Source: Escherichia coli
GTDB taxonomy: Bacteria > Pseudomonadota > Gammaproteobacteria > Enterobacterales > Enterobacteriaceae
Reading direction: 5' to 3' (one strand)
Assembly (NCBI RefSeq): GCF_044324785.1
Contig: NZ_CP172127.1
DNA: 64,000 nt
Below, piece after piece: positions 41,801 through 44,800 of the stretch. Made by a program: the position numbers. Position 1 is the stretch's first letter. Each line of letters starts with the position of its first letter.

Positions 41801-44800
41801 GTTTACAGTAATACCATTCGGGTTGGCAATAATCAGATCCGCTTTATCCCCTGCAACTTCCATCATCCCATTAATGGTTGAAGGATTTTTGGAAGTAACC
41901 TCATTCAGGATCACCTTCGCCGACCCGGAGGTCAGATTACTGTTTCCCTGAATATTTCCGGCAAGTGAAGTACTGGATTCATTAGCGCTGTTATTGAAAA
42001 CGACACCATTTTTATCAACGTTTAGGTTATCCCAGATATTATGAGATAAACCGCTACCGTTAGGTTTGTTGATGTCAACGACTGGCACACCATTGGCGTT
42101 ATATACCGTTCCATTTTTTATGACTAATCCCGCCGCTTGAGAAGCTACAGGAAAAGACAACATCATAAGTATAGCAATAGGGGTTAATGCTTTACCCACC
42201 GTTGCTTCCTTACTTAAATTTATCATCGCCACTAACGTTTTCCTTATTGATGCTATTCATTTTGGACATGCAGATCACTTTTGATGACTCACGGAATATC
42301 AGCAAAAATGATTGCGGCAAATCCTATCACCTGGCGCAATAAAAAATCACGAAAAATAAGCTGAAATAAGGACTCAAAAAAACAACTAAGAGTTATTGTT
42401 TTTTCAACGAACGGCGAAGTACCTAACTTACTAAAACACAATAATTTAAAAGTCCCCCATCCTTCCTCCTTGGGTGAAAAAAATCCATTTTAGAGGATGT
42501 CTGAAATGATATGTAGTTTTCTGTACGACATCATTTCAGACATCCGAATAAAACAACAAAGTTGATGAGTTACAATTAATTTAAATCTTGTTATTTGATT
42601 AACAAAGCATCATCATTACTGCATCTTATTCTCTATATCTTTTACGTCGGGGTAGATTCTTTATGGTCATTACGGGCAGGCGACATTTCATTATATTACC
42701 ACTTGCATTCACGCTTGTAACCCTTAAGAGTTATATAAAAAGGAAATAGTTCTTGCTCATGGTATTACTGAGATCGGATTAACCATGAGGTTAGCTATAT
42801 AGAGAACTTTGGCTTTGCGACAATTGGCTTAAGCAGCCACATTATGCCTGGCTTATCGTTGAAAGGGAGAAAGAAGAGCAAAACAGTTTGGCAAGCTTTC
42901 ATTCCCATCTAATAGCAATCACCGCTATACATCATCCCTTAACGTACTCTGGCCTTCATAAAAATGTTATTCTAAATTAAAGATTGTAATGATTTTAATA
43001 ATATTGTTATTATTTTGCAACAAATCAATCTAAAACAATGATTAGTAGCGATTTTTTATTAGTTAAGAGAAATTGTTTTTACAGATTGCGCTATAATTCC
43101 GCTCATTATTCACCACAGGAAAAGCTGAAGTAATCTTAAATGACTGTATTAACCCTTTTCTCCGCTGCCAGCACTCTTAAATATCGTTGTTTTATTCTTA
43201 TAAAAACGGCTTTTTTGAGATAAAAAGTAATAGGTTCAGCCATTATGCAGAATTTACAACCTAAGAAAATCGCAAAAAACACTCTTATTCAGAATAAAAC
43301 TCTGTTCATCATCTTTCGGTAAGAATTAAATTACTATATTACCGTTCAACATCAGTATGAATGAAAATTCAATTGTTATACATGTGATGAATGTCATATA
43401 TTGTGCTCATCGATTGCAGGACATCGCTATTCTTTTAGAGATACAGATATCACGCTGTTACTCTCTGTATAAAGCACACGCAAAGATTAGTTGTGTTACT
43501 GCAGTTGTTATGTCGCATATGGAAAGCCCATTGTTACATCTTTAGTAATAAGTTTTATTCACTTTCAAAATTTTTACTCCATGAAGATGGGCTGTTTTGC
43601 TGCAAGCAATTGAGTTAGTGCAATGAACAAGAACTTACTAACAAGGGTAATTATCATTTCGGATGATCTATATTACCTTCAGGGATTAAGTGCAAAACTA
43701 GGTAACCATTATCGTTTTTTTATTGAGTGTTTTTTTTGTACTCAAAATGCATGTAATAATGACCTAAGTACACTTAGATTTGATAACCGCTTTACCAAAA
43801 ACGTACTTCTTGTCGCAGTGGATGACGTAAGTATACTTGCAAAACTGCCAGATTTGGCCAGGTTTTTAATGATTGTTTCACTCAGAAAGATGAAAAACAG
43901 AAATATCTTCTTTTCACTCTCAGAGCAAACATTCATTAGCCGACATATAAAATTGAATAAACTCATTACTTTGATTAAAAGTACTGATAAAGACCAGCAA
44001 GTCAGACAGGTGACTCTGACAAGGTATGAGTGGGATATCTATTACTTATATTTTAAGATAGATAATAAAAGAATATTGCACACCCTGCTAAAAAAGGATG
44101 TCAAGTACATTAGTCACTATAAAATATCGGTTTTCAACAAGTTTGAAATTGCTTGTGATAGTGATGGCTTTTACATTTTCAAGGCACTTATACAGTTAAG
44201 GAGATTTACCGGTTTTAAAAACGTCAGATTGTATCAATTGCATTAATTATCTCGTTCTATATTAACTCTAAATTTCAAGGATATTAATATGTTTTCTACT
44301 TTCAAAAAAGCAGCTCTGCTGGCAGCTATCGCATTACCTTTTTCTACCATGGCTGCACCGACAGTCACTTTTCAGGGTGAAGTAACCGATCAGACCTGTT
44401 CCGTAAATATCAACGGTCAAACCAATTCAGTAGTATTGCTGCCGACCGTAGCCATGGCTGACTTCGGTGCAACTTTAGCTGATGGCCAGAGCGCAGGCCA
44501 GACGCCGTTTACGGTTTCTGTGTCTAACTGCCAGGCTCCGACTGGTGCAGATCAGGCAATCAACACCACTTTCCTGGGCTACGACGTGGACGCTAGCACG
44601 GGTGTTATGGGAAACCGTGATACCAGCAGCGACGCGGCGAAAGGCTTTGGCATTCAGTTAATGGATTCCAGCACTTCTGGTAACCCAGTAACTCTGGCTG
44701 GCGCGACTAACGTACCGGGTTTGACCCTGAAAGTTGGCGATACTGAAGCCAGCTACGACTTCGGTGCGCGTTACTTCGTTATCGATAGCGCAGCTGCCAC

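Follow-up and report, generated by a model that had tools for sequence, protein, structure and literature searches.

A conserved hairpin-forming inverted repeat upstream of otpA in Escherichia coli O-island 47, and its possible place in a structured 5′ leader

The window analysed here, the whole 64-kb stretch of E. coli DNA, corresponds to O-island 47 (OI-47), an island found in O157:H7, O55:H7, O145:H28 and further E. coli. Its genes include those for the regulator GrvA, the phosphodiesterase VmpA, the loc6 fimbriae and the OtpAB secretion system. Within the island, 1,390 bp of intergenic DNA lie between otpA (ECs1282), here tpsA, on one side and ECs1281 with the loc6 fimbrial operon on the other. 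The tpsA/otpA gene heads a cluster made up of otpAB and of acyl-carrier, ketosynthase and ABC-transporter genes. The flanking genes are divergent and the region between them is AT-rich (29-37% GC compared with ~50% in the adjoining coding sequence), as the initial annotation had proposed. The features discussed below are as follows.

38420-42232, minus strand: tpsA, equivalent to otpA (ECs1282 in Sakai), a 1,270-aa open reading frame (ORF) with a TPS domain
42233-42620, minus strand: otpA-proximal conserved part, a putative structured 5′ leader and/or regulatory region (from conservation with the divergent island L146 and RNAalifold)
42264-42324, minus strand: another long conserved hairpin, which lies 30-90 nt before the otpA start
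42377-42403, minus strand: small A/U-rich leader hairpin in which both bases of a pair differ between lineages (C-G to U-A)
42495-42545, minus strand: hairpin-forming inverted repeat (from folding, compensatory changes and retention in the divergent island)
42588-42605, no strand assigned: short palindrome TTGTTA-N6-TAACAA, 43 nt upstream (in the otpA sense) of the 16-bp hairpin
42620-43336, no strand assigned: central filler, more variable among E. coli copies than the rest of the region and unalignable with the divergent island
43623-44246, plus strand: 207-aa orphan ORF, equivalent to ECs1281 and first in the loc6 fimbrial operon

The claim that no credible ORF lies between the two genes agrees with several lines of evidence. 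RefSeq has no feature inside the gap in any of the 40 copies that were listed out of 380 carrier E. coli genomes. The longest ORF, of 62 aa (43357-43545, plus strand), has no Pfam match and is cut by a frameshift in O157:H7, and a ribosome-profiling study of Sakai contains no small gene in the region. We therefore rejected a concealed coding sequence, as the ORFs had no family match or a frame that was not conserved, and none corresponded to a ribosome-profiling gene. Plasmid homology was also discarded: the only plasmid matches to the gap were two Escherichia records filed as plasmids, one of which is chromosome-sized (4.9 Mb) and the other an O157:H7 EDL933 record. For the neighbouring ECs1281 protein, which the initial annotation called a fimbrial regulator, that role is putative at most: a search of 5.8 billion proteins yielded 6 relatives of this orphan, Pfam assigned it no domain, AlphaFold gave a model too poor to use (pLDDT 39.8), and no DNA-binding domain was detectable by either route.

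The inverted repeat consists of a left arm (GGATGTCTGAAATGAT, 42495-42510) and a right arm (ATCATTTCAGACATCC, 42530-42545) that are complementary at 16 of 16 positions across a 19-nt spacer (42511-42529). The distance from its near edge to the start of tpsA (42232) is 263 nt, matching the perfect 16-bp palindrome with a spacer of ~19 nt, about 260 bp from tpsA, that had been described. On the otpA-sense strand the spacer contributes 2 + 3 further pairs, giving a predicted stem of ~21 bp with an 8-nt loop, and the hairpin alone folds with −28.9 kcal/mol on the minus strand and −27.0 kcal/mol on the plus strand. Among perfect inverted repeats with a spacer of up to 60 nt it is the longest in the window, the runner-up having arms of 12 nt. 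In 300 first-order Markov resamples of the gap, arm length never exceeded 12 nt (mode 8), and a 141-nt segment around the hairpin scored z = −2.7 on the sense strand and −5.2 on the plus strand against shuffles. The repeat is far beyond chance and is not a random feature.

The repeat was present in 380 of 5,426 complete E. coli genomes, namely the island carriers, and in none of the other 5,046. It occupies one place per genome, which rules out a dispersed repeat (REP/BIME, MITE or IS ends). No further copy was found in the window, and none near loc6, grvA or the biosynthetic genes, so the search for the palindrome elsewhere that the initial annotation had called for revealed no repeated regulon motif. 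Border repeats of a fimS-type invertible element were rejected as well, the arms being merely 19 nt apart and no recombinase gene being annotated nearby. A metagenome scan with the inner-stem pattern returned the same E. coli haplotypes and 42 unrelated chance hairpins. In other genera (Kosakonia, Enterobacter, Mixta, Izhakiella, Buttiauxella and others), BLAST, an inverted-repeat search and a covariance model revealed no equivalent hairpin ahead of the tpsA orthologs; the leaders of these more distant orthologs are unrelated. Every island in which the hairpin was seen also carries ECs1281/loc6. One locus in which tpsAB adjoins secG (L152) is without it, and the contig of another (L151) ends 678 nt upstream.

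Loss of the palindrome from orthologous islands had been named as a result that would count against its significance. In a divergent orthologous island (L146; TpsA 89% identical in amino acids, tpsA ~82% in nucleotides and ECs1281 56% in amino acids), the hairpin lies at the same position, at the same distance from tpsA (6972-7014 in that sequence). Both deep lineages have the same inner 9 bp (TGAAATGAT/ATCATTTCA) and the same spacer length of 19 nt; these two lineages are all that are available, so that few independent events can be counted. The sequence around the hairpin is only ~50% identical between the lineages. Identity to the divergent island is ~78% at 42233-42391 and 43-65% at 42392-42619, and falls to background further upstream. 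Within the spacer, the apical stem changes from GTA/TAC to GTGTG/CACAC in the divergent island via an A-U to G-C double change. The divergent lineage is without the basal 6-7 bp, which leaves a stem of 14-17 bp and a folding energy of about −16 kcal/mol.

Seven haplotypes of the repeat are known in E. coli. A divergent E. coli clade has GAATATC.../...GATATTC instead of GGATGTC.../...GACATCC, a swap of two double substitutions that retains 16/16 pairing, and an A-to-C change in the same clade creates a 17th pair. Four further changes are one-sided transitions in the arms (in the O157, O145/E105, 33E and PapM haplotypes), each of which leaves a G·U pair on the otpA-sense strand and an A·C mismatch on the opposite strand; this asymmetry comprises 4 events only (one-sided p ~0.06). 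The LR14/EC974 haplotype has a true mismatch on both strands. Over the haplotypes, hairpin energies range from −22.4 to −28.9 kcal/mol on the sense strand and from −20.7 to −28.7 kcal/mol on the other, and the O157, O145 and 33E haplotypes drop to about −21 to −23 kcal/mol on the plus strand. We estimate the chance of obtaining 2 restored pairs from 4 random changes in 32 arm positions at ~1e-3. Counting both lineages, three pairs show double changes; the covariation score was higher than in 499 of 500 shuffles and than in every slid control, and paired cells amounted to 94%, compared with 24-45% in the slid controls. The substitution pattern thus indicates that pairing, rather than sequence, is conserved in the outer arms and the spacer, and that the repeat is a genuine hairpin-forming element kept foldable by selection. 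Retention of pairs through compensatory and wobble changes on the sense strand is the behaviour expected of a cis-acting leader stem-loop.

The repeat is one of several structures in the otpA-proximal region. For the ~400-nt stretch up to the start codon, RNAalifold gave −64.2 kcal/mol with a covariation term of −4.6 in the sense orientation, and −48.1 kcal/mol with a covariation term of +0.34 in the antisense orientation. Nearly all pairs of the 42264-42324 helix are common to both lineages, with one terminal pair lost in the divergent lineage, and its core is also predicted by single-sequence folds. Six of its pairs survive one-sided changes as G·U on the sense strand only, with A·C mismatches disrupting the helix on the plus strand. 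In the short TTGTTA-N6-TAACAA palindrome, the half-sites are conserved in the divergent lineage and the spacer is not, which makes it a better-shaped candidate operator or, alternatively, a candidate −35 element. Closer to the gene, a U-rich segment (42333-42351) can pair with the Shine-Dalgarno (SD)/start region in the RNAalifold fold and in the minimum-free-energy (MFE) fold of the divergent lineage, and this pairing is missing from the E. coli MFE fold. The anti-SD helix shows no variation between the sequences, and an anti-SD or FourU-like pairing in the proximal leader is speculation drawn from these models. No match to the RfaH ops/JUMPstart element (GGCGGTAGnnTG) with up to 1 mismatch was found in 42233-43622. 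Outside the proximal region, an 8-bp inverted repeat at 42755-42788, unrelated to the 16-bp repeat, shows a compensatory change in one strain, E105, and the one-sided intermediate there is mismatched on the minus strand.

In the Cappable-seq tables for EDL933, the intergenic region has no listed start site, and the sole sense start listed for otpA is internal; the otpA operon appears to have been silent under those conditions, and the island may simply not be expressed in laboratory media. A convincing σ70 promoter was not found on the minus strand upstream of the hairpin: candidate promoters fell below the scan threshold, and the frequency of promoter-like sites did not exceed that in shuffles. 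The supplement of Tree et al. (2014) contains no Hfq-CRAC EcOnc peak or small RNA at Sakai 1348686-1350075, and Esr41 was rejected as it lies in OI-43/SpLE1, as were other published EHEC small RNAs given that no EcOnc entry falls at the locus. No Rfam 15 family reached its gathering threshold; the best match, mir-3047, scored 25.9 bits against a threshold of 53, and all matches were sub-threshold noise of the eukaryotic miRNA/snoRNA type. The hairpin is in this respect unlike any curated RNA family, with none of which it shares sequence similarity. None of these data sets supports an expressed or already known small RNA at the site, where part of an unannotated one had been suggested. The proposal of a terminator fared no better: a scan of 42100-43800 returned 0 sites, the spacer is 19 nt long, and the sequence past the stem (UCUAAAAUGG on the minus strand, GAAUAAAAC on the plus strand) has an adjacent U-tract on neither strand.

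The hairpin is best read as neither a terminator nor a typical operator. Our preferred interpretation, to which we assign a probability of about 0.4, is an RNA stem-loop that acts in cis within a long otpA 5′ leader containing several hairpins. Transcription of the otpA operon would start upstream of 42545 and run through the hairpin, and the ~21-bp stem with its 8-nt loop would form in RNA of the minus (otpA-sense) strand, within a leader of >310 nt on the mRNA of the otpAB/polyketide-like operon. There it could influence processing, stability or elongation of the transcript in cis, perhaps as a site for a double-strand-specific RNase or as a 5′ stabiliser or roadblock. Leader stems that are processed or that stabilise an mRNA are well known: the lambda N, rnc and pnp hairpins are cut by RNase III, and ompA carries a 5′ stabiliser. 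The OI-47 hairpin resembles these in having a long, near-perfect stem of ~21 bp on the sense strand, far upstream of the start codon and accompanied by further hairpins, and in retaining its pairing through compensatory and G·U substitutions. It differs from them in being known from sequence alone and in having a stem of 14-17 bp in the divergent lineage.

A different explanation is that the repeat works as duplex DNA, with a dimeric or tetrameric regulator (the ECs1281 protein and GrvA being candidates) binding the half-sites and governing the divergent otpA and loc6 promoters. With the palindromic operators that dimeric transcription factors use, the repeat shares its inverted form, its place in a divergent, AT-rich candidate promoter region, and inner half-sites that are invariant, together with their 19-bp spacing, in both deep lineages, the flanks having diverged by ~50%. 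It is also confined to islands with ECs1281/loc6, and a transcript start upstream of it has not been reported. The outer arms and the spacer, however, change in a pair-preserving way, which counts against an operator because a protein reading duplex DNA needs no self-complementarity. Arms of 16 nt, 19 nt apart and 28-35 bp from centre to centre, also differ from the usual helix-turn-helix operators, the site occurs once per genome and has no second copy near loc6, grvA or the biosynthetic genes, and ECs1281 has no detectable DNA-binding domain. Of the operator originally proposed, the invariant inner 9-bp half-sites speak for it and the co-varying outer arms and spacer weaken it, and we regard an operator as unlikely. 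Equally doubtful is a functionless quasi-palindrome that replication template-switching between the arms keeps perfect and that perhaps extrudes occasionally as a cruciform in AT-rich supercoiled DNA. Such correction of quasi-palindromes is established in E. coli, and as at known hot spots the double changes fall at exactly paired positions with intermediates still segregating; the unrelated 42755-42788 repeat also has a compensatory change (in E105), and neither Hfq-CRAC, ribosome profiling nor Cappable-seq gives evidence of expression. A neutral repeat would nevertheless be expected to decay at ~50% divergence, yet position, spacer length, the inner 18 nt and an apical stem persist, unlike at template-switch hot spots, and this persistence across deeply diverged flanks argues for selection. 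Even at 22% divergence, we estimate the chance of 18 unchanged nucleotides at ~0.01, and the neighbouring leader helices, which are imperfect palindromes, also retain pairing through G·U on one strand only.

The remaining alternatives place the hairpin in other transcripts. On the otpA-sense strand, with a start near 42570-42600, a terminator or attenuator or the body of a separate small RNA would be compatible with the very stable fold (−28.9 kcal/mol; z = −2.7 for the 141-nt segment), with the conserved TTGTTA-containing block ~45 nt upstream and with U-rich sequence downstream, at 13 nt in E. coli (GGAUUUUUUU) and at 2 nt in the divergent lineage (CUGUUUUGU). A stable intergenic stem-loop is indeed what intrinsic terminators have in common with it; unlike them, it has an AU-rich stem, a long loop (19 nt, effectively 8 nt) and a U-tract that is neither adjacent nor conserved. 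The otpA and ECs1281 genes are divergent, so no terminator is needed between them. Together with the negative terminator scan, the missing EcOnc peak and Cappable-seq start and the far sub-threshold Rfam matches, these points make an attenuator or small RNA very unlikely. Least probable, and by our reckoning highly unlikely, is a structure of the plus strand in a very long ECs1281/loc6 leader. A perfect palindrome folds either way, and the plus strand gives −27.0 kcal/mol and the stronger segment score (z = −5.2), but the ECs1281 start is 1,078 nt away across non-conserved filler, all four one-sided changes become A·C, with energies of about −21 to −23 kcal/mol in O157, O145 and 33E, and the consensus fold is without covariation support.

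A bolder extension of the leader stem-loop, which we consider a long shot, is that a structured leader RNA of >310 nt, not described before, would have the hairpin as its entry element and would gate the ~20-kb otpAB/polyketide-like operon after transcription initiation. Gating might then proceed by double-strand-RNase processing, by processive antitermination, or by temperature- or ligand-dependent unmasking of the ribosome-binding site. If such a leader does gate the operon, expression of OI-47 would be RNA-controlled, beyond H-NS/GrvA alone. Most likely, the otpA hairpin is an ordinary kind of cis-element with a putative function, and, as a local element of a familiar kind, its impact outside OI-47 would be limited. 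For the island itself, a conserved element upstream of otpA would offer a concrete handle on when and how an apparently silent operon is switched on.

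The inverted repeat upstream of tpsA was found as the initial annotation described it: two 16-nt arms (42495-42510 and 42530-42545), complementary at 16 of 16 positions and 19 nt apart, lie 263 nt from the gene start at 42232, within an AT-rich intergenic gap of 29-37% G+C compared with about 50% in the neighbouring genes. Among perfect inverted repeats in the 64-kb window with up to 60 nt between the arms, this palindrome is the longest, the runner-up having 12-nt arms, and no inverted repeat longer than 12 nt arose when the gap was resampled 300 times under a Markov model. No description of it was found in the annotation, Rfam or literature searched.

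A 1.7-kb stretch around the palindrome has matches in 380 of 5,426 complete E. coli genomes (90-99.5% identity, once each), including O157:H7, O55:H7 and O145:H28; the closest genome found for this region is strain N3 (99.5% identity). O157:H7 Sakai has the same arrangement of ECs_1281 (a 207-aa hypothetical protein), a 1,390-bp gap, ECs_1282 and ECs_1283. In the literature, ECs1282-1283 are the OtpAB two-partner secretion system, ECs1276-1280 the loc6 fimbrial locus and the whole region O-island 47 (OI-47; S-loop 71), where GrvA is also encoded. As both the Sakai arrangement and the published names match, we identify the palindrome region as the divergent otpA / ECs1281-loc6 intergenic region of OI-47. 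In the window, as in Sakai and EDL933, the loc6 usher ORF is intact at 840 aa; in strains N3 and TR01 (O157:H7) it is annotated as frameshifted. The gap was also thought to hold no credible ORF, and indeed no gene is annotated there in 40 listed copies from the 380 genomes, each of its six ORFs of 40-62 aa either has a broken frame in other haplotypes or matches no Pfam family, and a ribosome-profiling study of Sakai has no entry within it.

Features of the otpA-loc6 junction (window positions)
38420-42232, minus: otpA (tpsA)
42237-42253, minus: Shine-Dalgarno (SD) region, CAAUAAGGAAAAC
42264-42324, minus: second long hairpin
42314-42322: conserved candidate promoter, TGATAGGAT
42333-42351, minus: invariant U-rich stretch, GUGAUUUUUUAUUG
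42377-42403: small A/U hairpin
42495-42545: palindrome (big hairpin)
42588-42605: short palindrome, TTGTTA-TTTGAT-TAACAA
42755-42788: perfect inverted repeat, CTCATGGT / ACCATGAG, 8-bp arms, 18-nt spacer
43357-43545, plus: 62-aa ORF (MNENSIVIHV...)
43623-44246, plus: 207-aa ORF (ECs1281)
45689-48211, plus: loc6 usher gene

The motif was looked for elsewhere, a check proposed with the initial annotation, and did not recur. Each genome has a single copy, which rejects a dispersed repeat, no second site with up to three mismatches was seen in the window apart from one chance-level match inside a gene, and a covariance model of the hairpin recovered only orthologous copies from 530 kb of related loci. 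A known RNA family was likewise rejected, all Rfam matches being sub-threshold noise, as were Esr41, an EHEC island sRNA initially suspected that maps to OI-43, and an RfaH leader, the ops element being absent.

Alignment of 24 E. coli copies from complete genomes and metagenomes resolved seven hairpin haplotypes.

Hairpin haplotypes in E. coli
Window: GGATGTC.../...GACATCC, pairing perfect
Clade about 9-10% diverged: GAATATC.../...GATATTC, two double substitutions at exactly paired positions, pairing perfect again
O157:H7: GGACGTC, one-sided transition
O145:H28/E105: GGATATC, one-sided transition
Strain 33E: one-sided transition
Strain PapM-32-1: one-sided transition
LR14/EC974: true mismatch on both strands

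The diverged clade also gains a 17th pair from an A-to-C change flanking the arms. All four one-sided transitions yield G·U on the otpA-sense (minus) strand and an A·C mismatch on the plus strand (one-sided p ~0.06 by our own estimate), and the hairpin folds at -22.4 to -28.9 kcal/mol in the sense orientation versus -20.7 to -28.7 in the other. Judged from these changes and energies, the arms diverge at about the local neutral rate yet in a coordinated way. The covariation score exceeded 496 of 500 shuffles and all slid controls, and we estimate at ~1e-3 the chance of four random changes in 32 arm positions hitting and restoring two pairs. The 50 nt directly 3' of the hairpin in the otpA sense (42433-42482) are the most variable otpA-proximal part in E. 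coli, with 15 variable sites; a C/G-rich mini-stem there (CACCC...GGGUG) forms less well in the window than in the diverged E. coli clade.

Absence of the palindrome from orthologous islands had been proposed as evidence against a function; a hairpin was found at the equivalent site (6972-7014) of a divergent island represented by contig L146. This second lineage (L146-L149, L153 and L154, metagenome/Logan contigs from human gut, including Hadza, and other assemblies) carries a 56% identical ECs1281 relative and the E. coli gene order: biosynthetic genes, tpsB, tpsA (~82% DNA and 89% protein identity), a 1,293-bp gap, the ECs1281 homologue, the fimbrial operon, an SDR gene and a winged-helix regulator. 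Identity is ~78% over the first 160 nt upstream of tpsA (42233-42391) and 43-65% over 42392-42619; the central 700 nt of the gap are not alignable. The inner 9 bp of the hairpin (TGAAATGAT/ATCATTTCA) and the 19-nt spacer length are the same as in E. coli. In the apical stem GTGTG/CACAC replaces GTA/TAC, an A-U pair having become G-C by a double change and further pairs being new; at the base 6-7 bp are missing, leaving ~-16 kcal/mol. With this lineage included, double changes occur at three pairs, 94% of cells are paired compared with 24-45% in slid controls, and 1 of 500 shuffles reached the covariation score. Directly 5' of the L146 hairpin in the otpA sense (7021-7046, minus) is a terminator-like hairpin, GAGAAAC-N7-GUUUCUC followed by UUUAUUUUAU, that has no E. 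coli equivalent.

Beyond these two lineages, the hairpin is missing from the unrelated leader of TpsA orthologs at 82% and 74% identity; one contig (L151) ends 678 nt upstream, and in the other (L152, Logan ERR10124956) the tpsA module lies downstream of secG without loc6. Nor was the hairpin found upstream of tpsA orthologs in Kosakonia, Enterobacter, Mixta and other genera. From this distribution, the hairpin is a property of the loc6-otpA junction type of island, kept since the two lineages split. The tpsAB/acpS/SDR/FabZ/ACP module (TpsA 74-82% identical) thus also occurs with a wholly different leader in L151 and L152, in the latter beside secG without loc6, and module and junction have therefore been assembled separately.

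With RNAalifold we folded the 400 nt that begin upstream of the hairpin and end at the start codon, for five E. coli haplotypes and two divergent-lineage sequences. The otpA-sense consensus reached -64.2 kcal/mol (covariation -4.6), with 107 pairs, 18 having double changes, versus -48.1 kcal/mol (covariation +0.34) and 87 pairs, 10 having double changes, on the plus strand, where many pairs are broken by A·C. The second long hairpin, 30-90 nt upstream of the otpA start and just upstream of the ribosome-binding site, has nearly all its predicted pairs in both E. coli and the divergent lineage, and six of these persist through one-sided changes that give G·U only on the otpA-sense strand; in these models it is the strongest sign of a structured 5' UTR here. 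The small A/U hairpin shows a C-G to U-A exchange. Together, the strand-biased folds and these two hairpins suggest that the whole conserved stretch is transcribed in the otpA sense, the palindrome being the largest stem and the one furthest upstream.

Other nearby elements can also be described. In the RNAalifold and divergent-lineage minimum free energy (MFE) predictions, the U-rich stretch GUGAUUUUUUAUUG is base-paired with the SD region CAAUAAGGAAAAC, the E. coli MFE pairing it with the start-codon region instead; it could be an anti-SD or FourU-like element, and because the helix never varies it offers no covariation evidence. Separated by 43 nt from the big hairpin, on its upstream side in the otpA sense, the short palindrome keeps its half-sites in the divergent lineage with a changed spacer (TTGTTA-AGCATA-TAACAA, otpA-sense strand). 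Its geometry is closer to that of an operator than the geometry of the 16-bp palindrome. At 42755-42788, several haplotypes have a one-sided T-to-C change that mispairs on the minus strand and wobble-pairs on the plus, and in strain E105 it is compensated by A-to-G.

Among the starts listed from EDL933 Cappable-seq data for eight conditions, none lies in the gap (1434971-1436360). The sole sense start listed for otpA, at 1436432 (~window 42161, minus), lies 65 nt inside the coding sequence, and several antisense starts occur within otpA. Spurious initiation in AT-rich or foreign DNA that is silenced could account for such starts, and the operon seems silent in these conditions. A sigma-70 scan of the sense strand upstream of the hairpin returned no strong site; a candidate around 42689-42720 (TTACAA-16-TGgTAATAT) falls below threshold, as does TGATAGGAT, on the downstream side of the hairpin and overlapping the second stem.

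On the loc6 side, the 62-aa ORF falls within the best-conserved portion of the gap's ECs1281-proximal half. Of 11 copies, 7 have it intact, a frameshift truncating those of O157:H7, LR14 and E105; the majority of substitutions alter the amino acid, and the ORF has no Pfam match and is unannotated in RefSeq. It is probably not a gene, and therefore conservation of the DNA at 43383-43532, and at 43583-43632 just downstream, may reflect an ECs1281/loc6 promoter or leader. The 207-aa neighbour, earlier labelled a fimbrial regulator, is the first gene of the loc6 operon. It has no Pfam domain and is an orphan, a search of 5.8 billion proteins giving only six relatives, of which two are ~55% identical; its AlphaFold model is unusable. 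An invariant C-terminal block (KDVKYISHYKISxFNK) resembles, by eye only, a LuxR-type helix-turn-helix.

We favour, with a probability of roughly 0.4, the reading that the palindrome forms an RNA stem-loop in a putative otpA leader. This rests on pair-preserving evolution of the outer arms and apical stem, wobbles biased to the sense strand and other co-varying helices nearby; the main objection is that the transcript and promoter it calls for are putative. A duplex-DNA operator would explain the invariant inner half-sites and spacing and the co-occurrence with ECs1281, but is rather unlikely given the self-complementary spacer and unusual geometry. It is similarly doubtful that the palindrome is a neutral quasi-palindrome corrected by template switching: paired changes would follow, and the repeat at 42755-42788 behaves similarly, but position, spacing and inner stem have been retained long-term in diverged flanks.

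The terminator and small RNA raised in the initial annotation found little favour. A stable stem with U-rich sequence nearby would suit either, but the terminator scan was negative, with no U-tract after the stem on either strand, and for a small RNA there was no Rfam match above threshold, no entry at the locus (Sakai coordinates) in the published Hfq-CRAC table and no listed Cappable-seq start in the gap, making this explanation very unlikely. An RNA from the plus strand, on which the palindrome can also fold, is hardly credible in view of its A·C mismatches and missing covariation support.

Extending the stem-loop reading to a leader RNA whose structure would gate expression of the 20-kb operon, through processing, antitermination or temperature, is improbable. 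The palindrome is of a familiar kind, being a cis-acting hairpin that is conserved within a regulatory region and restricted to a single genomic island, and provides a testable way into the regulation of OtpAB and the adjoining polyketide-like cluster.
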